A DNA stretch of 51,528 bases from a virus (taxonomy: Duplodnaviria > Caudoviricetes). Below the pieces are notes generated by a model that saw nothing but the letters and a program-made list of their open reading frames with translations, was not told where the DNA came from and did no database searches. Shown one piece after another: positions 13,364 through 33,743 of this stretch (its first letter is position 1; the number at the start of each line of letters is the position of its first letter). The stretch is from IMG/VR virus record IMGVR_UViG_3300017971_000076, positions 1 through 51,528 of that record; one strand, written 5' to 3'. The position numbers and the translations under genes were made by a program.

Positions 13364-13785
13364 TACTTCTCTTTCAGGGTCACGGCGACTTTTCTGGGGG
13401 TGACTACGACGTGTTCGGCGATCGCCTTCCAAACCTCCGGCGATTCTTTGCGATACCATTTATAGCCGGCAACGTCTAACTCTTGCCGTGTGGTGGTTTT
13501 GATGGGCGGGTGATACTTGTTGCCGTCCCGGAGCCCGAGTCGATTGAGCGTGCGGGCGATTTCCTCCGTGTCCGCCCTGTAGGCCAGGCTGCGCTTCACG
13601 GTCAACTTCACACCATCGCCAACCGGGACCGTCTTCTGGCCCTCTTCGTCGGTCGGTACCAACTCGGCAATCTGTGTCTCGATTCCGGTGCGAACCTCAC
13701 GTGCCAGGGCTTCTGCGTCCCTTGCGTCCCGCAGTTTCCCTACCAGCGTTCTTATGGTTTTGGCTTGCTCTTGTTCGTCAGTCAT
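13363..13785 (-). CDS. Hypothetical phage protein
   Basis: Clean ORF in recombination/replication operon. Confidence 0.75.
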   Translation of the reverse strand: MTDEQEQAKTIRTLVGKLRDARDAEALAREVRTGIETQIAELVPTDEEGQKTVPVGDGVKLTVKRSLAYRADTEEIARTLNRLGLRDGNKYHPPIKTTTRQELDVAGYKWYRKESPEVWKAIAEHVVVTPRKVAVTLKEK

Positions 13786-13990
13786 ATTTTCCCCATTTCA
13801 GGAAGTTCCTGAGCGCGATACTGGCCAGCACGCACTCGATAAAGATCAGGTCAGGTTTCACAATCCGAACGCCCTCAACGATCCAGCAGCAGCCCCCGGC
13901 GATCCCGAGTAAAAACCCTACCCGGGATCGCGCGCCGAGCCTCCAGTGGCCGGCGATAATCAGGGCGTTTCCGAGCCAGCCGAATGGCAT
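13778..13990 (-). CDS. Small multi-TM membrane protein
   Basis: GAGGA RBS before ATG 13990; three hydrophobic segments ending ...RNFLKW. Confidence 0.65.
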   Translation of the reverse strand: MPFGWLGNALIIAGHWRLGARSRVGFLLGIAGGCCWIVEGVRIVKPDLIFIECVLASIALRNFLKWGKYD

Positions 13991-14052
13991 TAGTCCTCTT
14001 TCGTAAGGAAGCAGAAGGGTGGCCCTCCGTGGCCACCTGACCAACATCTGTC

Positions 14053-14730
14053 TTAAGCGGCCTTTCTCTCCCACGGGGCCTGTTGCGGGGGCTGTTGCTG
14101 CGCTGGAGCCGCCACAGGGGCCGCCGGCCCTGCCGGGGCAGGAGCGGGGCCGGCGGCGTGCGGCGCGACAGCGGCGGGCTGTGTGGGCGGACCCGGAGGC
14201 GGTGCGTGGGCCGGTTGCGGTAGGCCAGCATCGCCGGTCTGCGGCTGCGCCTCACCAGGGGGCAGGTATTTCTGGACTTCGTTCTGCGCGCCATACTTCT
14301 TATCTGTCGTGACACGCACCCGAACAGCCACGACCTGATTCAATAGCTGAGACGTGTCCGTAAGTTCAGCGGCCCCGATCGCACGGCCGATGGCCCCGAA
14401 CGCTTTCATTCCGATCGCCAAGCACTCGGCGTTCGGGTGCTGAATCATAATGCGATCAAAGAGTTTCCGGCCCTTCTGCTGGCCGTCCAGCACGCCCATG
14501 GCGAGATTGATGTAGTGGCCGTCGCCCTTCTTGGTCTGTTTGATCTCGGCGGACTCAATCAGCACGGGATACGTGCCGGGCGGGATGGCCGAAAAATCAT
14601 CCTGCGGCGCGATCATATTCGGGTCGATCGGCTGGCCGAAGATTGCCGTCAGGTTTCCGTGTTGCTCCATCGCCATTGGCGCTGGGGCCGGCATCGACGG
14701 CGGGACTGGCATGGACGGGGGTGGTTGCAT
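14053..14730 (-). CDS. DUF669-like single-stranded DNA-binding protein
   Basis: IPPGTY.V.I, TKKGDGHYI, GRKLFDR, NEVQKY; Pro/Ala-rich tail ending PW; follows AAA_24 gene. Confidence 0.8.
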   Translation of the reverse strand: MQPPPSMPVPPSMPAPAPMAMEQHGNLTAIFGQPIDPNMIAPQDDFSAIPPGTYPVLIESAEIKQTKKGDGHYINLAMGVLDGQQKGRKLFDRIMIQHPNAECLAIGMKAFGAIGRAIGAAELTDTSQLLNQVVAVRVRVTTDKKYGAQNEVQKYLPPGEAQPQTGDAGLPQPAHAPPPGPPTQPAAVAPHAAGPAPAPAGPAAPVAAPAQQQPPQQAPWERKAA

Positions 14731-17149: not shown

Positions 17150-18307
17150 CTAATCCTGCACCGATCCATCAAATAACCACTCGCGTACAGTATTCGCTAT
17201 TTTCTGTAGCCTCCCTAGTTCATTGAGATTGAGTTGCGAGTAGACCCGCTTCTGAAGCGATCTTGGGGCGTGCCCCATCGTAAGGTCGATCATGGCTTGA
17301 TCGGGCACGAGGTCCACGACAGTGGCGTAGGTGTGGCGGAGAGAGCCGATTCCGGCACCAGGGAGATGCTTGTCTGCCAGCAGCTTACACCACGCCCGCT
17401 CTAGGGCTTCCCGCCCGCTGTGTGCGCGTCGCCGCCTGGTCAGCAGAAGTCGCCGCTCCGTCTGGTCGACCGGCTTACGATGGTTGTCTCGGTAATCCAG
17501 GATCGCCGTAACAGTCTCGGGCCAAAGGGCCGCCATGCGACGGCGCTTCGTCTTGACTCGCCGGAAATCATGGTAGGGAATCTCGCCGTCCAGGTGGAGC
17601 CGGTCGAGCGTCACGGCGACCGTATCACTCTGATAGAAGCCGCAGTTGATCCCTAGCAGGATCGCAACCCGCATACTGGGCTCTGCGACCCGAAGTGCCG
17701 CCAGAATTACCTCCCGGTCCAGAAAGCGAGATACACCGCGCTCCTCTCGCTCGTACTCGATTGCGTGGATTCCAGGTGCCTTGAATCTCGGGCCATAGCG
17801 AACCTCTCGGTCGTACAGCCCCATCTCACGACCCCAGCGGAAGACAGTCCGGACGGCCGTGATGCGATTTCGCATCGTCGATGGGCCCCAGCCCCGGCGC
17901 TCCATGGCGCTCTGGACCGCTGTGAAGTGCTCTGGCCCGAGAGACGCGATCGGCACCCCGGCGAGCCGGGTATCCTCCAGGAGTTGACTGGCGGCCTGAT
18001 AGTCGTGGCGAGTCCTGGGTGAAAGCTGGCCAGTGACGATCCGGTCGTCTACGTCCATGAGATGCCTGGCGACCAGTTCCCCGACCGTCATGCTGCCGTT
18101 CTGAGTCGGCGGGATTAGCCCGGCCAGCAGGTGGTCGCGCTCCTGGAGCCAGAGTCGCAGCGCCCGGTCGGGATCGGTCAGCGGGCCGAAGTAGTGGACA
18201 CGCCCCCTGACCTTTTTACTCCACTGGCCGCTCGGATGGACCGTCAGAGGCCAGTCGGGGCGGGCTAGCTTCCACTCTCGGTACTCAGCGACTTCGGGGC
18301 GCACCAT
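17150..18307 (-). CDS. int: Tyrosine integrase (Planctomycete-type)
   Basis: N-term PLTVHPSGQWSKKVRGRVHYFG arm-binding region; KT, LRHT, MGH and C-terminal Y; GGAGG RBS before ATG 18307. Confidence 0.9.
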   Translation of the reverse strand: MVRPEVAEYREWKLARPDWPLTVHPSGQWSKKVRGRVHYFGPLTDPDRALRLWLQERDHLLAGLIPPTQNGSMTVGELVARHLMDVDDRIVTGQLSPRTRHDYQAASQLLEDTRLAGVPIASLGPEHFTAVQSAMERRGWGPSTMRNRITAVRTVFRWGREMGLYDREVRYGPRFKAPGIHAIEYEREERGVSRFLDREVILAALRVAEPSMRVAILLGINCGFYQSDTVAVTLDRLHLDGEIPYHDFRRVKTKRRRMAALWPETVTAILDYRDNHRKPVDQTERRLLLTRRRRAHSGREALERAWCKLLADKHLPGAGIGSLRHTYATVVDLVPDQAMIDLTMGHAPRSLQKRVYSQLNLNELGRLQKIANTVREWLFDGSVQD

Positions 18308-18382
18308 GTCAACCGCCCTCCAAGGAAGTATACTACATTTCCGAACCAATTCACACTAATTTAGCATAACTAGGAAGTCTCC

Positions 18383-18629
18383 GGGTGTAAAGAGGGTGTT
18401 ATTGGATTTCCGCCGGGCGTGGCGGTTGCCCTGCAAGTCGTCGCCAGGAAAGGACTTAGGGTAACACCCCGGAAACTAGGCGGCCTGGTAGTGGGTCATT
18501 TGCGGGGAAAATGGCATGTGTCATATCCTACTTACTGGCCGTAGGTTACGTCAATCCCGACTCTTGTTGTCTTGGTCAATTGGGGACAATAGGGGACACT
18601 GGGGGACAGATTCGGGTGTAGTTACACCC
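18383..18629. other. Putative attP region
   Basis: Non-coding, adjacent to int; five GGGTGT(A/T)(A/G) arm-like sites, three GGGGACA repeats at 10-bp period, two 25-bp bending-protein-like palindromes. Confidence 0.75.
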
Positions 18630-18635
18630 GCGCAG

Positions 18636-18666
18636 AAAAAGAGCCGGCCATGGACGTGGCCGGCTC
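18636..18666 (-). terminator. Intrinsic terminator ending the late/lysis operon
   Basis: GAGCCGGCCA/TGGCCGGCTC 10-bp stem followed by T-run on minus strand. Confidence 0.8.
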
Positions 18667-18690
18667 AGTCCCGCCCCACCCGCAATACGC

Positions 18691-18957
18691 TCAGTCTGGC
18701 CTCCTGAGCGCCGCAAGCAGTTCTCGAATCTCCTTCCGCTCAGCAGCCAAAGCCTCCAGGAAGGCATCTCGCTGCTCTGTCAGGGCCTTCGTGTGGGCCG
18801 GGCCGACTCTCGACAGCACATAGTATATTGTCCAGCCGAGGACCGCCAGGGCCCCGCCCTGAAGCATCTCCGGGGCGATTTGCGGAATCCCCGGGGCCCC
18901 CTCGGTCGCCAAGAGCACAGCCATTCCCCATATCGGCCCACACGCAAGCCATCTCAT
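18691..18957 (-). CDS. Holin-like small membrane protein
   Basis: Hydrophobic N-term and GGALAVLGWTIYYVL segment, charged C-terminal helix; last gene of late operon. Confidence 0.6.
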   Translation of the reverse strand: MRWLACGPIWGMAVLLATEGAPGIPQIAPEMLQGGALAVLGWTIYYVLSRVGPAHTKALTEQRDAFLEALAAERKEIRELLAALRRPD

Positions 18958-18958
18958 C

Positions 18959-19951
18959 CTATTCCCTCCCGTAGAATTCGCGCAGCCGGTCGATCGGCTG
19001 TACCCCAGAAAGCGTCTCGCCCAGCCGGTTCACGTAGGCCGGCAGGCCACCGATCTCGTACATCTCGGCGAACGTCGTATTCTCGTCATAGTCAATCACT
19101 TGGATGTCGACCCCCTCCTGGACCAACTGAACTACAATCTCGTTCATCTGCGGACAGAATCGGCACCAGTCGGCCCTGAAAAAGAAATTACCGGAACCCT
19201 CCTGGCTGCCAATCGCACTCAGGGCCCCCTTGCGAAAATCCTCGCAGCGCACGGCGTAGCCGATCCCGCCATCGGAACCCCACAAGATTCCGACAATCTT
19301 GCCGTCCTGGAAGATCGCGGAGCCAGACCGGCCACCTTTAGGCGGCGGGACGAACGTGAAGCTTGTCCGGCCGCCGTTGTACTTTGGGCTCATGTTCGCG
19401 CCCCCCTTGACATGCCCCTCCCATAGCGATTGCCATGAGAGCCCTGGGCAGCCGATCGAAATAATCGCGGTATCCTCTTCCGGGGACGCCTCGCCGATAG
19501 GAATTGCGTTCGGTAACTCGCCCTCCTTGAACGCACTCACCGGAATCTTAAGGATCGCCGCATCAACTTTCAGGGCCTTCACGACCGTCGCCTTGTACTC
19601 GCCAGTGATATGGCCGTCCAACCAGAACTCGACAATGAATGTCTTCGTTCGCCCGACGACGTGCCGGCAAGTGAGTACGTAGACGTACTTGTCGTCAATC
19701 GCAAAACAGCACCCACTCCCGCCGGAACCTCCGCCGCGTACACGGCAGGTCGCTTTCAGGTATTCGTAAAGCTGATCGAACGGCTCCGGCTCTGGATCGA
19801 CGATCGGGTCGCCGGGCTCTGGGATCGGCAATTCCTGCGACGGACAGCCGCCCTTCGGGCACTTATCACAATCATCATCCGGGCATGCGCCGTCCGACAT
19901 GGGCACACAACCCGGCAACGCTAACAGCAGAATCAAGAGCAGTCGTCTCAC
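18959..19951 (-). CDS. Lipoprotein: trypsin-like serine protease fused to thioredoxin domain
   Basis: AGGAGG RBS + GTG 19951; signal peptide LLLILLLALPGC; triad TCRH / DAAIL / GRSGS; C-terminal ADWCRFC...YVN thioredoxin fold. Confidence 0.85.
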   Translation of the reverse strand: MRRLLLILLLALPGCVPMSDGACPDDDCDKCPKGGCPSQELPIPEPGDPIVDPEPEPFDQLYEYLKATCRVRGGGSGGSGCCFAIDDKYVYVLTCRHVVGRTKTFIVEFWLDGHITGEYKATVVKALKVDAAILKIPVSAFKEGELPNAIPIGEASPEEDTAIISIGCPGLSWQSLWEGHVKGGANMSPKYNGGRTSFTFVPPPKGGRSGSAIFQDGKIVGILWGSDGGIGYAVRCEDFRKGALSAIGSQEGSGNFFFRADWCRFCPQMNEIVVQLVQEGVDIQVIDYDENTTFAEMYEIGGLPAYVNRLGETLSGVQPIDRLREFYGRE

Positions 19952-19961
19952 AGGTACCTCC

Positions 19962-20387
19962 TTACACAGCAAATGAAATCTGACGTTGCTGACGGGCCTC
20001 GCGCAGCGCCTTCAGGATCTTGATACCAGCCTGGACGGCCTGGATGATCGCGAAAATCATCATGGGGTTGAATGCACACTCAGTAACCTCTTGAAGCTCC
20101 TGCGAACATTGGAGGCTCTGCTCGGCCGTGAATCGCCCCTCAATAACCGCCAGGACGACGCCGTGAATCAGCGCCCACGCCTCATCTCTGGCAACCAAAT
20201 CGGCAGCGAAATCAAGAATCGTATCGTCGATCTCGATTACGGTACGTTCGGCGAGCACAACGCCCGTCTCGATAGCCGCCATAGTCCAGCGGCGCACGTC
20301 CTCGCTGTCACTCAGGTCGTCTGGGAAGTTAATCAGATCGCGGACGGGCACACGTCTCAACAACGAAAGCAATTGCAACAATCTCAT
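19962..20387 (-). CDS. Hypothetical protein with amphipathic N- and C-terminal helices (lysis region)
   Basis: GAGGAG RBS before ATG 20387; C-term FNPMMIFAIIQAVQAGIKILKAL. Confidence 0.7.
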   Translation of the reverse strand: MRLLQLLSLLRRVPVRDLINFPDDLSDSEDVRRWTMAAIETGVVLAERTVIEIDDTILDFAADLVARDEAWALIHGVVLAVIEGRFTAEQSLQCSQELQEVTECAFNPMMIFAIIQAVQAGIKILKALREARQQRQISFAV

Positions 20388-20391: not shown

Positions 20392-23300
20392 CTACTCCTC
20401 AGAAAGAAACAGGTTTGCCACCTCAACGTAATACTTAGCCAACTCTTGGTCTATCGTTCTCGCGTTATTGCGCTTTGCCGCAATGATCGGCCAAAGTTGC
20501 TTGCGCTCTTCGGCTGTCCCTTGCAGGAAAACGTCCAACGATTCGCGCAGCGATAGTCTCTTGACTGACGCCTGGAGCGGTGTCAGCCTCGATTCCGCCA
20601 GAATCCCTTTTCGCTCTGTGCCGGCGAACCCTTCCAGTCCTTCTGGCGTAACTTCCTCGTCGGCCCGAAATCGCCGAACTAGCCCCTTGCGCCTCTTGCT
20701 TCTCTCAGCTTTCTCTCGCGTCCTGGAGCCAGTCGGGATTTTGTTCGCGAGGTACTGCATCGCCAACTTCTGTGCGTTGCTTCTCGTGATGTACGCAGGG
20801 GCAGACGTGATTCCGAGACCGCTCGTAACAGCCGCCTGGACAGCCGGTTCCTTCGCTTCGCGCATCCGCATATAGTTCTTGACACTGAACGGTATATACG
20901 CTTCGCCGACATGCTGCACGCTGTCAATTAGCTGGGCCATCAACGGGTCATCTGCGTTCCGAATTTCCGTTCCGTAATAGTCCTCATTGCTCCACATATC
21001 CAGGAAAGTACCCCACATCGGATGCACCTTGTGATGCGCTGTTCGCATCGGATCATGCGTCCACGAATACACGTCACGAGAGTAGGTCGGCAGGCCAATT
21101 CGCTCAACGCTTCCATCGGGGTTCCGATTGCCGGTGGGCGGGAAAAAGTAATCCCGCAACTCCCTGGGGGCCTCTCCCGTAAGCAGGTAGGTCAATATAG
21201 CTCCGAGGGTCGCATACGAAATTGCCGCCCCAATCACGTAAGCCTGCTTGCCGCTAATCAGTTCCCCGCCGAGTGCCTTCCGTTCCTTAGTGGTAAAGAT
21301 GTCCGTAACTGCGCCGCCGTACTCACGGATACTACCGAGGTTCCAGCCTACTGACCGCACGGCCAACATGGACACATCTTTGACGTACTGGTTCCAAAAC
21401 AGATTGTCGTAGGCTAGCTGGCCAAGGCGGTTATCGACTGAATCCCACGCCTGCGTCAGTTGCTCCGCAACTTGCTCCTCGGAAAGCGTTCCCCATCTGC
21501 TGTACACGTCGCGTGCCAAGTAATGGAACGTTCCTAGCTTTAGTCGCGGCACCATGTACTGCATGATAGGCGCTGCCGTCGCCTCTAGCGTCGCGAAAAT
21601 GCTCTGTACCGGGAGCTTGACGGCAGAGGACGCCTTTTCCATTGGGGCCCCGTACCGTAAGTTGTAAAGCGTATCCCTGATTGATTTGATCGACCTGTTG
21701 TAGTATCTGGGGTCCATGCTGGCCCGGCCGCCTGCCCCGATGATATTTTCAATCAAGTACGCCAGTTCGTCGTTCTTAATCTTGTCAAGATCGTTGCGCA
21801 TCGCCTTGATTAGCTTATCGCCCTGCCACAGCGACTTGAAGCCGGCAAAGGGGGCCGTGACCAACTCTTTGGCTCCCTGCGACACGTTACCGCGGAGCAT
21901 CTTGAGAATCGACACGCCAGTCTGCGTGGCGATCGCGTCAGTCATAACATTGAGTGCATGGAACCCGGACAGCGACAGGCTAGCTTGATTCATTGCGTTA
22001 CCGAACGCTCGCGCGGTGTTGTACAGCGTGCGAACAGCGACGTTCGGGTTGGCCCTCAACCCAGGAGATAACTGGTTATCAATCATGCCAGCGACCTCAT
22101 TCGGCATCGCCCACCGCCCCAATACCCTCACGCCCTGTTGTGTAATCGTCTGCTCCTGCGTCCCAAGCACGAGCGAGCGGTCCAGCATTAGCAGCGGGCT
22201 CAGCGGCTCGTTGGCAGCCAGGAAGTCTTGCCACATCCCAGTTACCTCCGGCGCAACTTCCCGCATTTTCTCCGGCGCTGCAAGCCACGCCTCCAAGATA
22301 ACAGCCTCCTGCTCCTCTGGCGTCTTGGAGTATTCGACGAACCCTTCCGTCTCTGGTATCGATCTCTCGACGCGGAGTGACGACAGCGCGTCCAACTCCC
22401 GCCGCACCGCCTTACCGCCATTCTCGACCATGTAATCGTACAGGCCGTAGATTTCGCCAATATTATGCCCGATCTCGTGTGCGAGTGTCGCTACGGGGGT
22501 CCCCGTCCGCGTCTTGATGATCCGCCGCCCCTTCTTTGTCGTGACGGTCTCACCGAAAGACTCCAGCTTCGTTACCCGTCTTGTCGCTACTCCCAGAGAG
22601 TTTGCGACTGACGTGAGTTGATCAACGAGTAGTTTGTCGAACACTTCGGTGACTGTCACGTCTCCGGACGTTTGCACTAAAAACGACGGATCATCGACAA
22701 ACCTGAACCCACTCGGCAGATAATCTTTCTCCAGGCTGGCCGGCACGAACACAGCTAGGCCGTGTTGCTTCAGCAGCCCCATTGCCTCCGTCTTCGCCGC
22801 ATATTCGTTCATGTGGTGAATCCGCATGAACGCCAACTCAGCCGGGTTGTCAGTCACTAGTTCAAGGCCAGCCTCACGACCTTCCTTTACAGTCGGGATA
22901 ACCCGCTTACGGAGGAAGCCAGACTTCCGATAGGTCTCCCGGAAAATCTGACCGAGCACCGTGTCCGCTTCTGGGCTGGATTTCCACAGGTGAGGGAAGT
23001 AGTCTTCGTTGAATTTCGACAGCTTCCCGACCTTTTGGACACGCTCCCGCGCCGCGTCCAACTCACCTCGGATTACCTTTGCGACGGCGTTCAACTCACC
23101 CGGCTGCTCTGTCCCAGACTCCATGCGGTCGATGAATTCAAGTCGCTCATCGGGTGACATCTTGTAGAACGACCGCTCAATCTTATCGAGCGAATGCTTA
23201 GACGCCTCATCCCACTGGGCCGCACGAGCCATCTGGCCACGCAGGATATGCCCCGCTCGCCTGGCCCGCCGCCCACCGGCTGCGACCGGGGACGCTATCG

Positions 23301-24933
23301 ACACAAGGTCTTCGGCCGCCGCCCGTGCTTTCGAGGCTACGGGCGACTTCTTCCTCTCCCCTGGCTTGGCGGCCGTTTCTGGCGCGTGAATGCCGTCCGC
23401 CGGAAGCGGAGCACCTGACTCCAGGGCCTCCGTCGTTAGGTTGCCGGCGATCCCGATGGCCCTCTGCTGGAGGACCCTGGCCGGCTCAGCGGCTACAGGC
23501 GGGTTCTGACTGACTGCCGTGCCGTACCTCCGGCTGATTGCCGGCTCGATCTCGGCGTGAGTCTTATCAGCTATCCAGAGGTATACGTTACCCTCGGAGT
23601 CTGTCGTACTTCTCGTCCTTGGCTCGCCCTTCGGGGCGCTGGGATACTTCCCTCTGAACTCTGCCGATATTTCTTGCCTGTCCTGAATCGTGGGGTTCTT
23701 TACTACGGTCGTCTTCCCCACCTTAAATACTTCCCATGCCTTTTGCGGCTCGACGGCCGGCGATTCCTGGGCCGCTACCGCCCTGTCAGCGTCCGTCTGC
23801 GGCTCGCTCACGGCCTCCTGGGCCTTGGCCGGCTCCTGGGCCGTCTCGGCCCCTCGGGCCTCTGGAGCGGCCGTAAACGCCTTACTTACTTCCTCCGTGA
23901 ACGCCCTCCGCTGCTTGCGAGACTCGCCGTACTCGGGAGCCAGGCCCCATTTCTTCCAGGTTTTCCGCGATGGGACCCGCCCCTCTTTGGCGTAGGCCAC
24001 GATCTCGCCAGTCACCCGAGCCACCTTTTCGCGACTCATCTGCCGCACGATCCCCGGGGACCCGGCAAATGCCAACGCAATCACCGTCTGAACTGTCGTT
24101 TCATTGACTATCTGCCTGAGGCTGTCTTTCGTGAGGGCCTCGGGGTCCACGTCGGCCACCTTCGCGGCCACGCCGTGGCTGATCTCAGTCACGAGTTCTT
24201 CCGGGACTTCCTGGGCGATTGCCATCCCGAGCCGCTTTAGTCCCTCGCGGACCCCGCCAGCCACGGCCTGCTTCCCTGCAACCATGGTTTCGACGCCCCC
24301 CAGGCCCATTTTCTGCATGACCGCGGCCGGGGCTCCCTCGATAACGCCCTGGCTAACTGCATAGCCGGCCAGTTTGGTGCCCTTCAGCCCGGCGTCCCGC
24401 CCCTCAGTAATGGCCCGGTTCGCCTCCTGGCCGGAGGCCGCGAGAATCGCCGCGGCGGGGCCGCCTGCCATCCCGGCGGCACCCATTGTCGTGAGGGATC
24501 GTCCAGCCCCGCGGACGCCGCTCTGAATAACGTCAGGGACGATCCCGCCACGCTCGCGCTTTCGCTGGACCTGCTCGACCGCATCCGCGAAGCGATTCAT
24601 CCGATCGGCATACTCATCGTGGCCGGTCAATCTGGCAATCGGCGAGACAATATCCGCCCCAGCCTCAATTGCATACGCCTTAACGCCCGGCCAGTTTGAC
24701 TCACCAAGCTCTTTGCTGGCCTGCGCCAGCAGCCGCTCGCGCTCGATAATCTGCTCAGACTGGCGGCGCTCCGCCTCCGTTAACTCCTGACGCTTCGGCG
24801 GCTGCTGCGCATAATAATCCCTGAGATTGCGGCCAACCTCCAGGACATCTTGATTGACGCCCTTTTCGCGCACTTCCAGCGCCCCTTCCCTGAATTGCCG
24901 GCCGAAGTTCAGTACATCGCGATCAATCGGCAT
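20392..24933 (-). CDS. Large internal virion/ejection protein (polyvalent-like), contains HExxH metallopeptidase-like motif
   Basis: 1513 aa, Ala/Gly-rich helical N-term, AHEIGH, position after two smaller ejection-like genes. Confidence 0.7.
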   Translation of the reverse strand: MPIDRDVLNFGRQFREGALEVREKGVNQDVLEVGRNLRDYYAQQPPKRQELTEAERRQSEQIIERERLLAQASKELGESNWPGVKAYAIEAGADIVSPIARLTGHDEYADRMNRFADAVEQVQRKRERGGIVPDVIQSGVRGAGRSLTTMGAAGMAGGPAAAILAASGQEANRAITEGRDAGLKGTKLAGYAVSQGVIEGAPAAVMQKMGLGGVETMVAGKQAVAGGVREGLKRLGMAIAQEVPEELVTEISHGVAAKVADVDPEALTKDSLRQIVNETTVQTVIALAFAGSPGIVRQMSREKVARVTGEIVAYAKEGRVPSRKTWKKWGLAPEYGESRKQRRAFTEEVSKAFTAAPEARGAETAQEPAKAQEAVSEPQTDADRAVAAQESPAVEPQKAWEVFKVGKTTVVKNPTIQDRQEISAEFRGKYPSAPKGEPRTRSTTDSEGNVYLWIADKTHAEIEPAISRRYGTAVSQNPPVAAEPARVLQQRAIGIAGNLTTEALESGAPLPADGIHAPETAAKPGERKKSPVASKARAAAEDLVSIASPVAAGGRRARRAGHILRGQMARAAQWDEASKHSLDKIERSFYKMSPDERLEFIDRMESGTEQPGELNAVAKVIRGELDAARERVQKVGKLSKFNEDYFPHLWKSSPEADTVLGQIFRETYRKSGFLRKRVIPTVKEGREAGLELVTDNPAELAFMRIHHMNEYAAKTEAMGLLKQHGLAVFVPASLEKDYLPSGFRFVDDPSFLVQTSGDVTVTEVFDKLLVDQLTSVANSLGVATRRVTKLESFGETVTTKKGRRIIKTRTGTPVATLAHEIGHNIGEIYGLYDYMVENGGKAVRRELDALSSLRVERSIPETEGFVEYSKTPEEQEAVILEAWLAAPEKMREVAPEVTGMWQDFLAANEPLSPLLMLDRSLVLGTQEQTITQQGVRVLGRWAMPNEVAGMIDNQLSPGLRANPNVAVRTLYNTARAFGNAMNQASLSLSGFHALNVMTDAIATQTGVSILKMLRGNVSQGAKELVTAPFAGFKSLWQGDKLIKAMRNDLDKIKNDELAYLIENIIGAGGRASMDPRYYNRSIKSIRDTLYNLRYGAPMEKASSAVKLPVQSIFATLEATAAPIMQYMVPRLKLGTFHYLARDVYSRWGTLSEEQVAEQLTQAWDSVDNRLGQLAYDNLFWNQYVKDVSMLAVRSVGWNLGSIREYGGAVTDIFTTKERKALGGELISGKQAYVIGAAISYATLGAILTYLLTGEAPRELRDYFFPPTGNRNPDGSVERIGLPTYSRDVYSWTHDPMRTAHHKVHPMWGTFLDMWSNEDYYGTEIRNADDPLMAQLIDSVQHVGEAYIPFSVKNYMRMREAKEPAVQAAVTSGLGITSAPAYITRSNAQKLAMQYLANKIPTGSRTREKAERSKRRKGLVRRFRADEEVTPEGLEGFAGTERKGILAESRLTPLQASVKRLSLRESLDVFLQGTAEERKQLWPIIAAKRNNARTIDQELAKYYVEVANLFLSEE

Positions 24934-26622: not shown

Positions 26623-27573
26623 TTAACCCCAGCCGGAAAAGCTAACATCTCGACTGTCTACATTGACATACACATACGCCGCTTCATTACTACCGTATGG
26701 CTCGATAGTGAAGCTCTGCTCTGCCTCCTCCTTACTTCCATCATCTCTCGTAATTGTTGCGCTGAAGGTGACACTTACCGTCGCATTCCCACCCTCATTT
26801 GCGTCCAACGTAATCCAGTACACCTTCCCTTCTACTGGAGAATTGCAGGTTGCAGTGATTGTTGTGTAAGTAGCTGTGCATGTGAACTCGCTAATGTCGT
26901 CATACGTACTGTCGTCCGACCACCAAGACGGGTCGGCGTCACCATACTTCACGGCACCAAATTGCGGCCAATCAACTTGCTCTGGAGACGGTGTACGTGA
27001 GACCTTAATACGGAACTTTGGGTTCGATGGCTTGCCGATTGAGTGGCCCGTCAATTCGAGCGCGACAACAATCGAACTTATCGGCGACAAGGCAACTTCA
27101 GCCGCTATCGGAATCTCTCCTTCAGTCTCGACGGCATTTCCGAATACATCCCCGTCTGACACAAGCAACACGACGCTATCGCCAACATGCTCCACGCCGA
27201 TATTGAAATAAAACGATGGCTCATTACCCCAGAAGTCGTCGCCAAGGTCAGAGTAATCCTTCGTTACTGAATCCGCATACTCGCCGGCAGGCTCCTCCTT
27301 TAATTGCACGGTCGCTCCAGTACTCTTTAGAGTTGCCGACCATACCTGGCTGCCAGTAGGCTCTATTGTTCCGTAATCTTCATGGTCAGTAAGCTTCCCA
27401 GTAATGCCTGTCACTTGAGTCCCGGGCACAACATACTGCGGTACAGTAAGGGCTATACCGTAATCTGGCGTATACCCCGGCGGATTCGGCCCAGGAAACG
27501 ACCAATCTCCCCAGCCCGGCGGCACGTCGAGCGACGACTCATCAGCGACTTTGGCGACGTATGCTCCAGCCAT
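26623..27573 (-). CDS. Putative tail-associated acidic beta-rich protein
   Basis: TGATG-coupled to tail fibre; Ser/Thr/Asp-rich. Confidence 0.6.
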   Translation of the reverse strand: MAGAYVAKVADESSLDVPPGWGDWSFPGPNPPGYTPDYGIALTVPQYVVPGTQVTGITGKLTDHEDYGTIEPTGSQVWSATLKSTGATVQLKEEPAGEYADSVTKDYSDLGDDFWGNEPSFYFNIGVEHVGDSVVLLVSDGDVFGNAVETEGEIPIAAEVALSPISSIVVALELTGHSIGKPSNPKFRIKVSRTPSPEQVDWPQFGAVKYGDADPSWWSDDSTYDDISEFTCTATYTTITATCNSPVEGKVYWITLDANEGGNATVSVTFSATITRDDGSKEEAEQSFTIEPYGSNEAAYVYVNVDSRDVSFSGWG

Positions 27574-30500
27574 CAGTTCTGAATGTGCGCCTCCACGTTA
27601 CCTGTGCTATTGGCGGTCGGGTTAAAGTTCGTCCCGTTGTTCGATACGGTCGCAGAGTTGGCCTGCACGATCGACCCGATACTCGCGTAGATTCCGGTGC
27701 CCGTGTTGTACGTTACTTTCGTGTCCGCCGTCTTCGCTTCCACGGCCGACAATAAGCGGAAGATCATCCCGTACCCGGTGTTCCCGCTGCACACGCAAGC
27801 CTTGGCGATTACGTTACCCTGCGTGGCGTCGATTCCGTTACCGGGCGACCCCGAGAAGACCGCCCACGGCACCCGCGCGCTACCGTAGTACACCCGCAAG
27901 TTGTAAGTCGCTGCACCACAAGCCTTTACGTAGTCGCCGTACAGGTTGCCGTCCGGATTGACGTTGATCCCGATATCAAAGCCAACCACGCCGAACGCCG
28001 ATCCGAGCCCAGCATGCGCCCGTTCAGTAACGTCCAGGCCGGTTGTGCTCGCAGTACTGTCACCGACCAGAACCATCTTATTCAATGAGCCGATCGAATA
28101 GCCTTGACTCACGGTCATGCCGTCGTAGCCGGAATAGTCCAGGATCGTCTTGACGATCGTGACAGTTCCGGCGACCGCCCCACTCGGCGCAGACGTGTGC
28201 TTGTGTGTCGTGAGGACCGTGATTCGCGTGTTGACCGCATCGACATTCGTGATTTTCCAAACCCCGGCAAGCGTCTCCGGTCGCGTTCCGCCAGACACAT
28301 CGTACGGCACCAGTAAGTAATCATTGACCGCCGCGTTCGACACGTCAGACACATTCAAAACCACCGACCACGCGCCGGCCGCACCGGCCGAACTCTGAAT
28401 CGAAGACAACGTAATGTCGTATGTGTTCTCGCCAGTAATTGTGATGTTATCGCCCATTACATGGTCGAACGAAGCTGTTCCGGCCGTGAGCGTATAGGTG
28501 CCGTCACCCAATTGAATCGTAACCGTCGCACCCACAATCATCGAACTGGAAATCTCACTCATCGCCTTGTCGATCGTCGCCCAGGGGTCGCCGGACGAGC
28601 CGTCTCCGGTCGTATCGTTGCCGCTCGTGGAGATGTAATAAGTCGTGTTCGTTGTGATAGCACCCTGGCATCCGAGGGCCGTGTGGGTAGCGAGCGTATG
28701 GTCCGTGAGTACGTTCGCGATCGTGTTCGGCAATGACAGGTGTTCAGCCGCTACGTAATCCGAGAACCCGTCGTGGTGTGCTCCACCATCCATTGCGGCC
28801 CCGGCCGCCGTCACATTCGTCGTGTCCGTCACATCAGCCGAGGCTTCAATAGTGTCTAGCTTCGCGCCGTCGACCGAAAGGTCGCGCCCGTCGATCGTGA
28901 CCAGCGCGTCGACCGTCAGATTGCCGGTCAGGTTCCGCGTTCCATCCGCCAGCAGATAGATCGTGTGGTCGTCGTCCCCGACCCCGTTAAGCGAACCGTG
29001 GTCGATCTCGCTATCGTTCGTGGTGAGCGTGATATAGTCGCCACCATCCGTGTACGTAAGCCCGGTGCCCGTCCGTAGTACGCCATCATTCGAGGCGGCC
29101 CCCAGGTAGTCGGCCGTTGCACTCGAATCGACTGCCGCCTTTCCGATCGCATCGTATGCCGCGTCCCAATTCGCCGGAGTCACCGATGTGGTAGAGTACC
29201 CCGTGGACCGCAAAATCTTCCCGTTATCGCGCGTCCCAATGACCGAGATGTCATTTTCAAGGTAGGCCGCGCTCAGGATACCGGCCGCACTACCTTGCTG
29301 CCCAAGATTCGTCCAAGTCATCCCGTCGTCCGTCGACACATGGACGCGCCCGGAGTCATTGAAGCCGGCAATCAACACGGTTCCCGTGTAGGTAAAATAG
29401 CCAAACTTCGTCTCCGATCCGACCTGTCCCTCGTCGGTCCACGTCGCACCCCAGTCCGTTGATTTAAGGAGCTTCCCGCCGTTGCCGGTCCCAGCCAACA
29501 CCGTACCGCTCCCGAGATACACGAAGCACCGAACACCAGCCACGCCATGCTGCTGTCCAAGGTCGGACCACGTTGCACCATAATCAGTCGATCGAAAGAC
29601 CTTGCCAGTAATCGTTGTCCCGGCGAGAGCAATCCCGCTCCCAAGGTAGATTATCGAGTACACCTGAGTAGATGTACCGGAGTCCGGCGAACCAAGGTCG
29701 CTCCATGTGGCCCCAGAGTCAGTGGACCGCAGAATCTTACCGCTGGCCGACGTGCCCGCAATCACGATCCCACTGCCGCAATCCGCGATACAGTAAATCC
29801 AGGAGCAACTGTGCTGCTGCCCCAGGTCGCTCCAAGTCGCGCCTGAGTCTGTCGACCGTACGATATGGCCGTTCGAGCCTGTCCCACCTACAACAATCTC
29901 GCCCCCAAGGTTGCATAGACTACGAACTGAAGTCTCGCCCGTGGCTTGTTGTCCGAGATTAGACCACGTTGCCCCGTAATCAGTAGACCGGAGTACGTAA
30001 CCGCCAGCATACGTCCCGGCTAACGCGACTCCGCTGCCGACATATTCCAGGCACCAAACCTTGGTCTGGCTATACATCGTGCCAAGGTCGGTCCACGCTG
30101 TTCCCGTGTCACTTGACCAAAGATACGGTTCTGCTCCATGGTCGCCCCAGCCGTATGCCTCATCTAGCAGTAGACCATCGGCGGAGATGTCCCGGCCGTC
30201 GATTGTGATTCCGGCGTCCACGGACAGGTCGCCCGTCAGATTGCGGGAGCCGTCCGCGAGTAGGTACTGTGTATGATCGTCGTCCGTCAGTCCACCGATC
30301 GAACCGTGGTCGATACCGGATTGATCGAGGCTAAGCGTATCGTCCGTCAGGACGATTGGAGCCGTAACCACAAGGTTCGTGTGTGTCGAAATGTCGATCG
30401 TATCAAGACTAAGTGTATCGTCCGTCAGGATAATCGGAGCCGTAACCGCGAGATTCGTATCGTCAGAGATGTCGATCCCGCTCAAGCTCGCACCGGTGTG

Positions 30501-30815
30501 CGTGTGCCCTGGGTCCGCTCCGCTCGTGACGTTTACACCGCTGATTATCCCGGTCGTCGACAGGTTGTCGTCACCGAAACTGATCGCCCCGGTATCGCTC
30601 GTTATAGCCGCGCCGTTGATCGTGATGTTATCGACCGTCAGCAGCGTTAAGGCAGTCAACTCCGTGCCCCAGGCCGGAGTCGAACCGACGCCCGCGCCGA
30701 CAAGTACCTCGCCCGACGCACCATCCGTCAGGATGCTCGTGTCCTCAGCGGCGCGCTGGAACGCCTGGCGAACCTCGGTCGGCACGTTCGGATGTGGGAT
30801 GCGACGGCGCACCAT
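27573..30815 (-). CDS. Tail fibre/receptor-binding protein with BNR/Asp-box propeller and C-terminal beta-helix
   Basis: Repeated RSTDxGATWxDLG; YYISTSGND.TGDGS...PWATI start of right-handed beta-helix. Confidence 0.85.
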   Translation of the reverse strand: MVRRRIPHPNVPTEVRQAFQRAAEDTSILTDGASGEVLVGAGVGSTPAWGTELTALTLLTVDNITINGAAITSDTGAISFGDDNLSTTGIISGVNVTSGADPGHTHTGASLSGIDISDDTNLAVTAPIILTDDTLSLDTIDISTHTNLVVTAPIVLTDDTLSLDQSGIDHGSIGGLTDDDHTQYLLADGSRNLTGDLSVDAGITIDGRDISADGLLLDEAYGWGDHGAEPYLWSSDTGTAWTDLGTMYSQTKVWCLEYVGSGVALAGTYAGGYVLRSTDYGATWSNLGQQATGETSVRSLCNLGGEIVVGGTGSNGHIVRSTDSGATWSDLGQQHSCSWIYCIADCGSGIVIAGTSASGKILRSTDSGATWSDLGSPDSGTSTQVYSIIYLGSGIALAGTTITGKVFRSTDYGATWSDLGQQHGVAGVRCFVYLGSGTVLAGTGNGGKLLKSTDWGATWTDEGQVGSETKFGYFTYTGTVLIAGFNDSGRVHVSTDDGMTWTNLGQQGSAAGILSAAYLENDISVIGTRDNGKILRSTGYSTTSVTPANWDAAYDAIGKAAVDSSATADYLGAASNDGVLRTGTGLTYTDGGDYITLTTNDSEIDHGSLNGVGDDDHTIYLLADGTRNLTGNLTVDALVTIDGRDLSVDGAKLDTIEASADVTDTTNVTAAGAAMDGGAHHDGFSDYVAAEHLSLPNTIANVLTDHTLATHTALGCQGAITTNTTYYISTSGNDTTGDGSSGDPWATIDKAMSEISSSMIVGATVTIQLGDGTYTLTAGTASFDHVMGDNITITGENTYDITLSSIQSSAGAAGAWSVVLNVSDVSNAAVNDYLLVPYDVSGGTRPETLAGVWKITNVDAVNTRITVLTTHKHTSAPSGAVAGTVTIVKTILDYSGYDGMTVSQGYSIGSLNKMVLVGDSTASTTGLDVTERAHAGLGSAFGVVGFDIGINVNPDGNLYGDYVKACGAATYNLRVYYGSARVPWAVFSGSPGNGIDATQGNVIAKACVCSGNTGYGMIFRLLSAVEAKTADTKVTYNTGTGIYASIGSIVQANSATVSNNGTNFNPTANSTGNVEAHIQN

Positions 30816-33154
30816 CAGGCAACCCTCCGCCGGCCAGAGTTAATCACATCCATTGTGGACTGCTCGTATGCCCAGGCCCGGCCCGAGGTCCCCGTGATTC
30901 TCAAGATCGCGGCCTGACCGCGCCCTAGCCGACGAACCGAACTATTAAGCCCACCGCTCCAAGTCCCCGAGGCTACCGACGAGGCCGAGGTCGCCCCCTC
31001 GAAAGTCGTCGCCGGACGAATCGACCACGTTACGTCAGCACTATCGGCGGCAAGCACACCATCCAGGGAAAGAATCGTCCCGAAAGTCCCATCTGCCGCC
31101 AGTGGAATCGGGCCGATCTCAACGTATGACGCAAAGGCCGTCCCGCAATCGTTTTCGGCGAGCCCAGAAAACCTCCGGAGATAACCGTCGCGGCCGCCCA
31201 ATATAACCGCCGAATCTTCAACATTCGTGCCCTGGAGCGCGCAGGCCGCTAAGGGCTCGTGGCTCGACGAATGTGTAATGGGCCAGAACGTCTTGTTCGT
31301 CCAATCGAACCAGTAGTGCGTCCTAGCATTCGATGAATCCGGCGACAGAAAGATATGGACGCCATGGTTCTCTGTGTCGAATTCCAGGAGTACGGTAGTC
31401 GTCTCCGGTTGCAGGTTCTTAAACTCCTCCGGCAGCACTTCCCGTGATAACGGAATCGGCTCCGAATTCCCGCCGGGCGGCAAGGCGTATAAGCCGTCCA
31501 AAGTCAGGAAGATCAACTCTCCGGCCGGGCCGATACACCGAGCCTCCGGGCCGATGATCCCGACTGTGTGACTGACCGAATCCAGGTCCGGCGCGTACAC
31601 CGGGTCGCCGCGCATCATCCAGACTTCAGTGCGACAGCCCAGAATCAGGTAGTCGTCGCTGTGCGCGATCAGCGAGGTCAGCGGGTCGCCCGGCGTCCCG
31701 GCTTCGGAAGCCGTACCGGCCACGGCCCGCTGACTGTCGGTCTGCGAATAGTCCCAATCGTCCTCATCACTCTGCCGGGCCGCATACCAGACGTGTGGGG
31801 CCGTGTCCGCGCCACCGAGGATAATCCGGTCCAAGAACCTGGTAATCAGCGGACAGCCGGTCGGCACCTGTAATGTCGGGGCACCCTCTGCCGTAAGAAT
31901 CGACAGCGTTCCGGCACTCGGGTCATAGACCTTCGGAGCGCGCTCTACCCTGTACGTACAAGTCCCGTCACCTGGGGCCGAGGTCAGTGTGAGTGCCCCG
32001 GCCGCGATCGACGAAATTTTGTATGTCCCCGCCACTGTCGCACCACCGACGTTCGACACGACCACTACGTCGTCATACGCGCTGATGGAGTGGGCCGTCC
32101 AATCGGACACGCTTGCCGCGTCCAGATCGCTGCCGCTCACCGTCCCGTCCGTGCCCGTCACCCGGAGCCCGTAGTCCGCGATATACAATTTCTGCCCGGA
32201 CTGTACGCATTGCAGGCCCACGTCACTCCGGAGCGTCAGATTCGTGGACAACTCCGTCATAGTGCCATAGGTGTCCTCGTAATACAGCTTCCCGCCCGCC
32301 GAGCCCACGAGCATCGTGCGTGAGCCGCTGAGTGTGCTGGTCGAGAAATACTGGACCCGGAACGTGTTGACCAGACAGATGCCGCCGCTCTCTGTACACT
32401 CCATCCCGAACCCGACGCGGGCGCCCGTATGGGCGTCGACCGTCCCGGAAAGGATTTTCGTGCCGTGCCAATACACATCCACGTCATTGCCGCTCACGAC
32501 CGCCGAGAGCCACCCCGGGGCCGGTGTCGTAATTGTGCCCGTATCCGAGTCAGTAGTCGTCGCGACCGAGCCGGTATAGGACTTCAGCGTCCCGGACCAC
32601 GAGCCGTCCGAGCCAGTCATGGTCAGTTCGATTTGCACGCCGTCCGTTGCGTAGGCCGGCGTCGTATTATCGAGCCGCAGATAGAGCCGATACTTCCCGT
32701 GGAATGCGTTACTGTACGGCGCGATGAACATCTCGACCGTGTACGCGCTGGTCGTGTCGATCGACAGGGCGTCCCGAACCACTTCGCCCTCGCTCGTGGC
32801 ATAGCTGATTGACGCCATTGCGGACGGCAGGATGTCCGGCGTGTCCGACGCCCACGACGCCTGGGCCCAGGCCGCCGCCAATGAGGAGCCCGCGAAGTTG
32901 TCGCTCCATGCCGTGAAGTTGTCCCCCAGCGCGAGCGTCATGGGGTAGAGCATCCGCACGTCCGACCCGAGGTCCGTGATGTGCGACTTAATGAGCCCTG
33001 GCCGGCTGCCGCCGCGCATCCGCTCCTCAAACGTACCGATCGGCCAGACATTCGACATGTCCGGCGAGGTATAGGGCTTTTGCTGCCTAAAGGCAGCCCG
33101 ACGGTTCAAACCGGCCAGCGGGAACGGAATTCGGAGACGCCGCTTTTTAGCCAT
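30815..33154 (-). CDS. Tail stabilisation/nozzle protein (P22 gp10 / T7 gp12-like)
   Basis: 779 aa beta-rich; N-term IPFPLAGLN; position and size. Confidence 0.7.
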   Translation of the reverse strand: MAKKRRLRIPFPLAGLNRRAAFRQQKPYTSPDMSNVWPIGTFEERMRGGSRPGLIKSHITDLGSDVRMLYPMTLALGDNFTAWSDNFAGSSLAAAWAQASWASDTPDILPSAMASISYATSEGEVVRDALSIDTTSAYTVEMFIAPYSNAFHGKYRLYLRLDNTTPAYATDGVQIELTMTGSDGSWSGTLKSYTGSVATTTDSDTGTITTPAPGWLSAVVSGNDVDVYWHGTKILSGTVDAHTGARVGFGMECTESGGICLVNTFRVQYFSTSTLSGSRTMLVGSAGGKLYYEDTYGTMTELSTNLTLRSDVGLQCVQSGQKLYIADYGLRVTGTDGTVSGSDLDAASVSDWTAHSISAYDDVVVVSNVGGATVAGTYKISSIAAGALTLTSAPGDGTCTYRVERAPKVYDPSAGTLSILTAEGAPTLQVPTGCPLITRFLDRIILGGADTAPHVWYAARQSDEDDWDYSQTDSQRAVAGTASEAGTPGDPLTSLIAHSDDYLILGCRTEVWMMRGDPVYAPDLDSVSHTVGIIGPEARCIGPAGELIFLTLDGLYALPPGGNSEPIPLSREVLPEEFKNLQPETTTVLLEFDTENHGVHIFLSPDSSNARTHYWFDWTNKTFWPITHSSSHEPLAACALQGTNVEDSAVILGGRDGYLRRFSGLAENDCGTAFASYVEIGPIPLAADGTFGTILSLDGVLAADSADVTWSIRPATTFEGATSASSVASGTWSGGLNSSVRRLGRGQAAILRITGTSGRAWAYEQSTMDVINSGRRRVA

Positions 33155-33692
33155 CGCTAACTACTTCCGCCTTCTTTAAGTAGGCCAAGAGTCTTTCCAC
33201 CAATTCAGGGCCATCACCAAGAAGCCCGACTGCCTTATTGCACTTCCCGCACAACCAACCACGAAACTCGCCCGTCTCGTGGTCGTGGTCCATATTCAAT
33301 TTCTGAGTACATTCCTCTTCTGGTACTCCGCAAACGAAACACTTACCAGTAAATGAAGCCAGCAATTCATCTACTGTAGCTATGCATGGTGTATGCCCAT
33401 CTTTACGGGCAGCCCCAATGGACCTATAGAGCTTCGCCTTCATGCGCGCTACGGGATCGTGTCTTCTGGCGGCATCCCTTTTCTTTTGATACTTCCTTTT
33501 TGCTCTGTTGCGTACTTCAGGATTAGCAAGGAAATACTCTCTTGATTTCTTAGTGCGACAGCTACGACGTGCACTCAAAAGACCGAAGCTCCCGTCTTTT
33601 CTTTTCGTTGCCTTGCCAAATTCACACGCATCCTTAACTACCCCGCACATTGTGCATTTCTTGGGCTGCGTTTCGTCAATTCTCCTTGCCAT
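33147..33692 (-). CDS. Endonuclease VII-like (His-Me finger) homing endonuclease
   Basis: CFVCG...DHDHETGEFRGWLCGKCNKAVG signature; ATG 33692. Confidence 0.88.
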   Translation of the reverse strand: MARRIDETQPKKCTMCGVVKDACEFGKATKRKDGSFGLLSARRSCRTKKSREYFLANPEVRNRAKRKYQKKRDAARRHDPVARMKAKLYRSIGAARKDGHTPCIATVDELLASFTGKCFVCGVPEEECTQKLNMDHDHETGEFRGWLCGKCNKAVGLLGDGPELVERLLAYLKKAEVVSDG

Positions 33693-33702
33693 ATATCTAC
33701 CC

Positions 33703-33743
33703 AAAAGAAACCCGACGGCCCCGCACAACGCTGGACCGCCGGG
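33703..33743 (-). terminator. Intrinsic terminator-like hairpin
   Basis: 11-bp GC stem with G-U pairs followed by TTTCTTTT on minus strand. Confidence 0.6.

Follow-up and report, generated by a model that had tools for sequence, protein, structure and literature searches.

The virus genome analysed here (Caudoviricetes; IMG/VR record IMGVR_UViG_3300017971_000076, 51,528 nt, called the window as a whole) closes its late operon with three genes, A, B and C, which we read, with about even confidence, as a minimal form of the lysis cassette used by this phage clade. The product of B would be its exported effector. It carries a lipoprotein signal, a trypsin-like protease domain and a C-terminal thioredoxin (Trx) fold. 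The slot is read in this way because a tailed phage must encode lysis somewhere and this is the only candidate slot found. The gene structure, the domains, catalytic residues and export signal of B, the co-transcription signals, the linkage of B to C and the mosaic nature of the slot were observed directly; from these we infer that the genes are expressed late, that they serve lysis and which roles A and C play.

Several observations support A, B and C as a conserved, co-transcribed and periplasm-directed module at the end of the late operon (coordinates in Table 1). Their start codons were chosen by Shine-Dalgarno (SD) sites, of which each gene has one; an open reading frame (ORF) of 337 amino acids (aa) with a TTG start is a longer reading of the frame of gene B. 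Only 4 nt separate A from the upstream gene of a 1513-aa protein, 10 nt separate A from B and 1 nt separates B from C. No promoter-like site was found on the minus strand between the 1513-aa gene and C. A preliminary description of this DNA had proposed that three genes end the late operon at the usual position of lysis genes and that a terminator closes it. The gaps, the SD sites and the 10-bp hairpin confirm this arrangement, and the lysis position itself is strengthened by the conserved coupling of the module and by a slot that is mosaic like those of lysis cassettes.

By its signal features B is a bacterial lipoprotein, whose processing is predicted. Its N-terminus (MRRLLLILLLALPGC) forms a lipobox with a basic n-region and a hydrophobic h-region and ends in Cys. 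This Cys is present in the lipobox column of 15 of 20 close homologues, which bears out the earlier view of B as a lipoprotein. The close homologues are 47-98% identical to B and all metagenomic, several of them on 50-53-kb contigs; none was found among 50,697 GenBank phage records. The linker behind the signal is disordered at residues 12-52 in the AlphaFold model (predicted local distance difference test, pLDDT, below 50 for residues 12-47). It is rich in Cys in the window protein, as described before, but this is not a family trait: the extra linker Cys are confined to window B and one other (P0008) of the 20 close homologues.

The central domain is a PA-clan S1 serine protease, modelled with a double beta-barrel fold. 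Its match to Pfam Trypsin_2 (PF13365) has an E-value of 9e-15 and reaches 56.1 bits, above the cut-off of 27.6. Across 23 sequences H97 and S209 never vary and D130 is kept in at least 90%, in agreement with the intact triad noted previously. The AlphaFold (AF2) model of B has a mean pLDDT of 83, with values of about 86-97 over residues 60-240, and its best Foldseek matches are Rv3671c and DegS-deltaPDZ (E about 1e-12, TM-score 0.75-0.78 normalised on the target). When B was combined with 22 homologues into a profile and compared with PDB sequences, HtrA1, HtrA2, DegS and DegP matched at E-values of about 1e-10, and thioredoxins did so at about 1e-9. No PDZ domain was matched by Pfam in B, where the Trx fold occupies the C-terminus; B is therefore not a member of the HtrA family proper (S1C).

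The C-terminal domain of B is, according to its model, a Trx fold with CxxC at the start of the first helix and a cis-Pro-type loop. Residues 256-328 form a strand-helix-strand-helix-strand-strand-helix succession, with the first strand at 256-259 and the helix at 266-278. The match to Pfam Thioredoxin (PF00085) remains under the cut-off for B itself (E 3.4e-4, 21 bits against 23.5), and 14 of the 20 close homologues have a precomputed PF00085 match. C263, C266 and P304 are at least 90% conserved and L303 is invariant. WCxxC is found in 20/20 close homologues. The fold, the motif and the PDB matches all uphold the C-terminal WCRFC thioredoxin of the preliminary description. Reducing thioredoxins carry Pro as the second variable residue of the CxxC motif. 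At this position all 20 homologues carry F, Y or H, and we take such a C-x-[F/Y/H]-C motif to be of the DsbC, PDI or glutaredoxin kind and not of the thioredoxin kind. Three further Cys stand out in the protease part: C69 and C82, both present in every one of the 20 close homologues, and C95, two residues before the catalytic His, in 18.

In all 13 loci examined B is followed by C: in the window, in its four related virus records (three of them complete) and in eight further metagenome loci. These eight are the loci that include a B gene and downstream sequence, once three loci duplicating virus records are left out; the stop and start codons of their B and C genes mostly overlap. In the five virus records the gene order is a large protein, A or an unrelated A', B, C and then the integrase, except in G404, where early genes follow directly. 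G404 thus keeps B and C although no integrase separates C from the early genes. Moreover, B is 47-58% identical in more distant relatives, which is within the range of structural genes. The possibility that B and C are a variable moron next to the phage attachment site (attP) was rejected: they form a core, are coupled to the late operon and persist in G404 without the intervening integrase.

The N-terminal part of A is acidic and helical; a single hydrophobic helix towards the C-terminus (about residues 109-125, hydropathy 1.84) is followed by a basic tail. A matches no Pfam or PHROG family. It had been described as an amphipathic-helix protein; a helix is present, but it is this single hydrophobic one. 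The slot before B is occupied by A in three of the five virus records (the window, G402 and G405), and a 29%-identical homologue occurs in locus L066. In the other two (G403 and G404) A is replaced by A', a membrane protein of 87-104 aa with two Gly/Ala-rich hydrophobic helices.

Averaged over its family, C is most hydrophobic at residues 3-17 (hydropathy 1.93) and 35-49 (1.67), and a hydrophilic charged tail comes after these segments. The first segment could be a transmembrane helix or equally a cleaved signal peptide. The second begins at an invariant QGGAL and is followed by a conserved charged helix, FPAH..ALK.QRDAFL, which is predicted to be cytoplasmic from the charge distribution, since it follows a basic flank. 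The protein has no conserved Cys. Its family comprises at least 114 proteins in a set of 5.8 billion and 140 representatives in a 50%-identity library, all but two of them 44-167 aa long, and no names are on record for any of them. One member, P0113, lies on an 8.76-Mb contig, which might reveal a host and an integrated cassette. C has the traits of holins and pinholins (small size, at least one hydrophobic segment, a charged C-terminus, a position adjoining an enzyme gene), all of which are generic features. The earlier label "holin-like" therefore holds for the two hydrophobic segments and the charged tail but not for family membership: for A, A' and C alike, nothing significant was found among the holin families of Pfam and PHROGs, and only leads in the ESM Atlas. 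A complex prediction for the Trx domain of B with C scored 0.00 and gives no evidence either way.

A homologue of C is encoded in 26 IMG/VR loci. In the 13 of these loci examined in detail, C always lies between a large late protein and integrase or early genes homologous to those of the window. In general the C gene comes just downstream of one that contains a Trx domain or encodes a peptidase. The gene directly upstream of C in the 26 loci is a B-type fusion in 6, a free Trx lipoprotein in 12 and something else in 8. The free Trx lipoproteins are 107-172 aa long and carry WCxxC; the two that were tested match Pfam Thioredoxin at 3e-11 and 4e-8 (33.8-43.7 bits). The remaining 8 loci include a protein of 318-330 aa with a QDTGDC motif, preceded in two cases by a membrane protein with a weak Trx match, as well as a tiny Cys/Pro-rich lipoprotein, or no Trx at all. 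The tiny lipoprotein precedes C in L075-L077 and has a mature part of about 22-25 Cys/Pro-rich residues. Two of these small lipoproteins (L075:2351-2620 and L077:4722-4934; CEAPCNDGCPDGRCP...), directly upstream of C, are o-spanin-like in outline.

The cassettes with a free Trx carry their peptidases as separate genes. Exported trypsin-like proteases are encoded separately in 8 loci of this type. An exported protein of about 185 aa (gene cysP) occurs in L071, L073, L075, L078, L079, L081 and L083-L086 (for example L073:2778-3326). It has no Pfam match, its residues Q41, C53, H128 and D144-N146 are invariant, and its model (pLDDT 75) is closest by Foldseek to the peptidase domains of ComA and PCAT1 (E 1.6e-4 to 1e-3). 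On this model it is a C39-like cysteine peptidase with a papain-like fold. A third family, of 196-245 aa and without a signal peptide, has an invariant His43 and Cys170 and is found in 14 loci (L068, L071, L073-L081, L083, L084 and L086; for example L071:2244-2885). Its gene lies directly upstream of the C39-like gene or, where that is absent, of a secreted anchored protein. It gave a marginal match to PDB entry 3kw0, a 'cysteine peptidase' (E 0.0023); an assignment to Peptidase_C92 (PF05708) was rejected, with 0/5 records matching at E ≤1. This papain-like family is possibly the orthodox-type endolysin of these relatives.

The same free-Trx cassettes encode a 126-aa protein anchored at its N-terminus as well as the secreted anchored protein, which includes a Pro-rich segment and is anchored by its C-terminus. 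In the secreted protein a stretch 'LPTVR' possibly of Trx type, without CxxC, was noticed by eye, and the one member searched has no Pfam match. None of these additional genes was detected in the window group: the four families of extra peptidase and anchored genes gave no match below E 0.6, and the signal-less family none below 0.04. C and a periplasmic Trx fold are the constant elements of the slot and the peptidases are the variable ones, the window being the most compact form.

A muralytic enzyme, on which the lysis of a walled host would ordinarily depend, was searched for in several ways. No family of glycosidases, amidases or peptidoglycan peptidases was matched by Pfam among 55 window ORFs (E ≤0.05-0.1) or by PHROGs among 25 window ORFs, and B itself belongs to none of the known muralytic endolysin families in these two collections. 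The preliminary description, which had recognised no muralytic enzyme in this genome, is borne out by both searches. SLT, Phage_lysozyme and Amidase_2 each gave 0/5 in six-frame searches at E ≤1 of the window and the four related records. The 96 ORFs of these relatives that have no homologue in the window, a set that left out two ORFs crossing a sequence-retrieval boundary, matched only resolvase/recombinase, SprT-like, helix-turn-helix (HTH), zinc-finger and DUF families of Pfam. In five more distant records (85-98% complete) six muralytic families each gave 0/5. This absence holds at the level of profile hidden Markov models and is not proof. By eye, the late proteins that are conserved but unannotated seem to be of structural types, coiled-coil or beta-rich. 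A HEIGH zincin motif at residues 819-823 of the 1513-aa protein was considered as the mark of a hidden zinc-protease lysin and rejected: it is present in 2/5 orthologues, the protein resembles polyvalent proteins and no PDB sequence matches it.

In the proposed lysis cassette B would be made late, exported by the Sec/lipoprotein pathway and tethered to the membrane through its lipid anchor and a flexible linker of about 45 residues. Its HtrA/MarP-like protease domain would then act in the periplasm as the effector that degrades the envelope. Candidate substrates are the peptides of peptidoglycan, envelope proteins or tethers, or a host autolysin that it would activate, as MarP is reported to do with RipA. 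Since phage and cellular proteins have independently joined the two domains in opposite orders, the Trx fold is probably coupled functionally to the protease. A thiol-disulfide switch, isomerase or foldase appears more probable than a free-running reductase, which is made less likely by the composition of the CxxC motif and by the lack of an encoded electron donor, none being obvious in the periplasm either. The Trx fold might serve as redox switch or foldase for the protease itself, which has a near-invariant Cys beside its catalytic His, or it might catalyse disulfide formation or exchange in Cys-rich periplasmic lysis partners, in keeping with the Dsb-dependent disulfides of spanins (PMC6139136). 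C, together with A or A', would form the membrane part that triggers lysis or sets its timing, in the manner of holins, pinholins or antiholins.

Several points weigh against this proposal. We know of no trypsin-fold protease that is an established endolysin, and the proposal does not explain how a protease exported in advance stays harmless until the time of lysis. Many conserved late proteins are unannotated, and a muralytic domain could be hidden in the proteins of 1513, 1080, 779 and 684 aa. Window A and C match no Pfam or PHROG holin family at E ≤0.1; the best PHROG holin matches, from the A-slot protein of relatives and from a C orthologue, are not significant (E 0.21-0.28), and the ESM Atlas yields a lead only, a cluster with Holin_BhlA in 28% of its members (score 0.86). 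Finally, the trypsin-like protease of the distant relatives is one of up to three peptidases, among which the signal-less papain-like protein is the more orthodox endolysin candidate. The lack of this family in the window group can be read either way.

Table 1. Features of the window and of the A-B-C module
Feature	Position	Strand	Remarks
Gene A	19962-20387	-	ATG at 20387, SD GAGGAG, 141 aa
Gene B	18959-19951	-	GTG start, SD AAGGAGG, 330 aa
B residues 1-15, predicted lipoprotein signal peptide	19907-19951	-	MRRLLLILLLALPG, then C; lipobox
B residues 16-57, Cys/Pro-rich linker	19781-19906	-	disordered in model
B residues 58-246, HtrA/DegS/MarP-like S1 protease domain	19214-19780	-	
B codon H97	19661-19663	-	catalytic triad
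B codon D130	19562-19564	-	catalytic triad
B codon S209	19325-19327	-	catalytic triad
B residues 254-330, minimal thioredoxin/glutaredoxin-type fold	18962-19192	-	LP(A) loop at L303/P304
B codon C263	19163-19165	-	WCRFC
B codon C266	19154-19156	-	WCRFC
Gene C	18691-18957	-	ATG start, 88 aa
Spacer, presumed attP region	18350-18690		341 nt, between integrase and gene C
Intrinsic terminator closing the late operon	18633-18666	-	hairpin 18666-18641; 10-bp stem (8 GC), 6-nt loop, T run
Tyrosine integrase	17150-18349	-	PHROGs phrog_1, 1.7e-20; downstream of terminator
1513-aa late protein	20392-24933	-	upstream of A, stop codon 4 nt before A; no Pfam or PHROG family
BNR/sortilin-repeat tail protein (1080 aa)	27573-30815		profile annotation
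Endonuclease VII domain protein	33147-33728	-	Pfam 5.6e-19
SU10-type adaptor	37037-37822		profile annotation
Major head protein	38820-39854		profile annotation
Large terminase (TerL)	43320-45161		profile annotation
Early block: primase-polymerase, helicase, exonuclease, AAA_24, DUF669, methylase, MazG, SPFH			profile annotation

The window corresponds to a complete phage genome of about 51.4 kb with a 123-nt terminal repeat (1-123 = 51406-51528). CheckV gives 100% completeness for this IMG/VR virus record, whose terminal repeats are direct, and the claim of a complete genome made from the sequence alone was thus correct. There is no close relative among cultured phages: the identity of TerL to GenBank phages does not exceed 24%. 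HTH regulators are annotated by profile in addition to the tyrosine integrase. The 1513-aa protein resembles, by its sequence neighbours, the large polyvalent (injected) phage proteins; in the ESM Atlas these neighbours are clusters of large polyvalent proteins with LPD38, LPD39 and MuF_C (scores 0.92-0.97). One membrane helix is predicted near its residue 1231.

Other features of the genome were noted in passing. A 52-nt direct repeat (77% identity) at 41512-41563 and 47668-47719 stands some 10-25 nt ahead of the start codons of the late genes 41128-41502 and 45859-47643, both on the minus strand, and may be a shared late promoter or regulatory element. A tRNA-Thr gene (anticodon TGT, 37825-37899, minus strand) lies within the structural module, between the adaptor gene and a 269-aa gene. 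The endonuclease VII gene sits in the middle of the tail gene block, and its homologues in relatives are elsewhere within the late region. The 684-aa gene includes a 297-nt unit repeated at 72% identity (35116-35955), and the 1080-aa BNR/sortilin-repeat gene a 76-nt tandem pair (30324-30477). In the early region a 98-aa ORF (13778-14074, minus strand) with two hydrophobic segments encodes a further membrane protein; it is 54-72% identical in relatives and overlaps other candidate ORFs.

A planctomycete host is plausible, given the co-binning of a related phage in a metagenome-assembled genome (MAG), the ESM Atlas neighbours of C and the occurrence of cellular Trx-protease fusions. An unintegrated phage copy, 93-94% identical, is found on a contig of a MAG titled uncultured Planctomycetaceae, the only one of 401 sampled Planctomycetota genomes with B and the only one with C. 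A second, syntenic phage is represented in this MAG by a 10-kb fragment (L059, G001:C166:1-10330), which does not reach the cassette; its shared genes are 26-38% identical and comprise TerL with the adjoining 583-aa gene and the scaffold-like, major head, 269-aa and adaptor genes. A prophage search based on TerL gave matches in 8 of the 401 genomes, of which only the L059 fragment is syntenic. No bacterial attachment site (attB) was found in these genomes with the 351-nt integrase-proximal spacer as query, which matched only the phage contig and one 46-nt segment at 80% identity. The ESM Atlas neighbour cluster of C is described as 'Bacteria 67%, commonest Planctomycetota' (score 0.90) and is a lead only.

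The preliminary description had cautioned that similar proteins occur in planctomycete genomes, and rightly so: exported fusions of 530-700 aa in the reversed order, with the Trx domain first, are present in 19/341 sampled Planctomycetota genomes, mostly on large chromosomal contigs (for example G096:C1:2244116-2245249 and G044:C1:3881493-3882899; loci L088-L093). One of them is in the phage-bearing MAG and one source is named Pirellulales bacterium.

The alternative that survives best, although we consider it unlikely, is that the cassette is an accessory module for the last barrier (outer membrane, envelope proteins or wall tethers), spanin-like or LysB/LysZ-like, while a cryptic endolysin encoded elsewhere cuts the peptidoglycan. 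The lipobox and proline-rich linker of B recall o-spanins, as do the Cys/Pro-rich small lipoproteins before C in L075-L077, and many late proteins are indeed unannotated. PMC6139136 describes intermolecular disulfides dependent on host Dsb as near-universal in two-component spanins, which would give a phage Trx a job, and special additional lysis enzymes for unusual envelopes are on record, such as lysZ (PMC13123898). However, with 330 aa and two enzyme domains B is far larger than any o-spanin, and the conserved helix of C is predicted to be cytoplasmic and not periplasmic as in an i-spanin. Furthermore, neither Pfam nor PHROGs yields an endolysin candidate in the window, nor Pfam in the ORFs specific to the four relatives, and the small conserved proteins without annotation are by eye of the coiled-coil or beta-rich structural types.

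A non-lytic periplasmic role is rather improbable. B and its membrane partner would then destroy or modify a surface receptor or envelope protein, leading to superinfection exclusion, protection of the progeny or lysogenic conversion. B is exported and tethered to the membrane, and the cassette lies beside the integrase and the attP region, a classic site for conversion genes. Homologous fusions exist in cells, and other phages encode HtrA-like proteins and a 'periplasmic serine protease' without known role. However, the cassette is closely tied to the late operon, with no minus-strand promoter-like site to itself; it is also core, with a divergence like that of the structural genes, and is kept in G404, where no integrase stands between C and the early genes. 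The whole clade would, moreover, be left with no candidate lysis genes.

Nested within the lysis proposal is the version first put forward for this DNA, which seems to us improbable to a similar degree: the Trx domain reduces cross-links and the protease digests a Cys/Pro-rich planctomycete protein wall, so that no peptidoglycan hydrolase is needed. The cassettes of the wider clade agree with it in carrying up to three peptidases and two Trx-fold proteins without any glycosidase or amidase. So do the chromosomal exported fusions of planctomycetes and the near-identical phage contig binned in a Planctomycetaceae MAG, and planctomycete walls are described in genome papers as stabilised by a proteinaceous layer (PMC3035269, PMC4334474). 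The CxxC composition argues against a reductase, the second variable residue being aromatic or His and never Pro in the 20 homologues, and no periplasmic source of electrons is encoded. The host assignment is also indirect, with B and C each in a single genome and no attB. Because peptidoglycan was reportedly demonstrated in planctomycetes in work of 2015, a wall-cutting step should still be needed.

In its boldest form, which we regard as a long shot of much the same rank, a temperate clade, probably of Planctomycetota phages, would have given up glycosidase and amidase endolysins, and secreted proteases (trypsin-like, C39-like and papain-like) together with periplasmic Trx-fold proteins would open up and digest a protein layer of the envelope that is cross-linked by disulfides. 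The most compact form would then be that of the window phage, with protease and thioredoxin in one lipoprotein, and the planctomycetes themselves would use their cellular Trx-protease fusions to remodel the protein layer. A role in capsid or virion maturation, by contrast, was rejected, because a lipoprotein export signal conserved in 15/20 homologues rules out a cytoplasmic maturation protease.

To our knowledge, all tailed phages of walled bacteria that have been characterised breach the wall with an enzyme drawn from a few muralytic families. In the present clade, with at least 26 viral contigs that carry a C gene and a C family of more than 100 metagenomic proteins, the lysis position is consistently taken by exported proteases and Trx-fold proteins. 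Searches of the open-access literature found neither a protease-thioredoxin lysis system nor the lysis of planctomycetes by their phages described. What would be new is a lysis cassette with a new class of effector for phage lysis, which we infer beyond the anatomy of the module. If true, it would also bear on whether a protein layer or peptidoglycan holds the planctomycete envelope together, and the proteins would be of practical use as reagents to break such cells open. The idea lends itself to a direct test with a small set of constructs: B with C, a free Trx with C, and the peptidase genes.

Among known systems, the closest in layout are the holin-endolysin-spanin cassettes of tailed phages, especially those, as in phages 21 and P1, which combine a pinholin with an endolysin exported through Sec by a signal-arrest-release (SAR) or signal-peptide sequence. 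In both cases the late operon ends in a module in which small membrane proteins flank one enzyme, export of this enzyme precedes lysis (for B, as predicted) and components are swapped mosaically between relatives. Thiol-disulfide chemistry takes part in the activation of P1 Lyz. It is also part of spanin function, according to PMC6139136. However, B is a trypsin-fold protease with a Trx fold, outside any known muralytic family, and is predicted to be anchored by a lipid and not by a SAR domain, and A and C match no holin family.

HtrA-type proteases and MarP (Rv3671c) provide the best profile and structural matches to B, with the same His-Asp-Ser triad and a location outside the cytoplasmic membrane. 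Rv3671c is reported to be regulated by disulfides and to activate the wall hydrolase RipA. B differs in having neither a PDZ domain nor the four-helix membrane anchor; it has instead a C-terminal Trx fold and a putative lipoprotein anchor, and is borne by a phage as a late gene. With DsbA-type lipoproteins, TlpA, ResA and CcmG it shares an exported, membrane-tethered Trx fold with WCxxC and an LP(A) loop, and the free-standing Trx versions of the phages reach the Pfam Thioredoxin cut-off. The fold of B is, however, a minimal one of about 77 residues fused to a protease, and no partner of DsbB or DsbD type is encoded.

LysB is an additional lysis enzyme of mycobacteriophages, and LysZ is another (PMC13123898). 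Both are, as proposed for B, dedicated enzymes for atypical envelope layers; those phages, however, keep the canonical endolysin LysA, and the additional enzymes are esterases or target glycopolymers and are not proteases. The cellular Trx-trypsin fusions of planctomycetes (P0277-like) join a signal peptide, a WCxxC thioredoxin and Trypsin_2 in one exported protein as B does. They have the opposite domain order and a long linker, with about 26% identity over part of the protease, and they are chromosomal and not accompanied by a C-family gene, C being found in the 401 genomes only on the phage contig.

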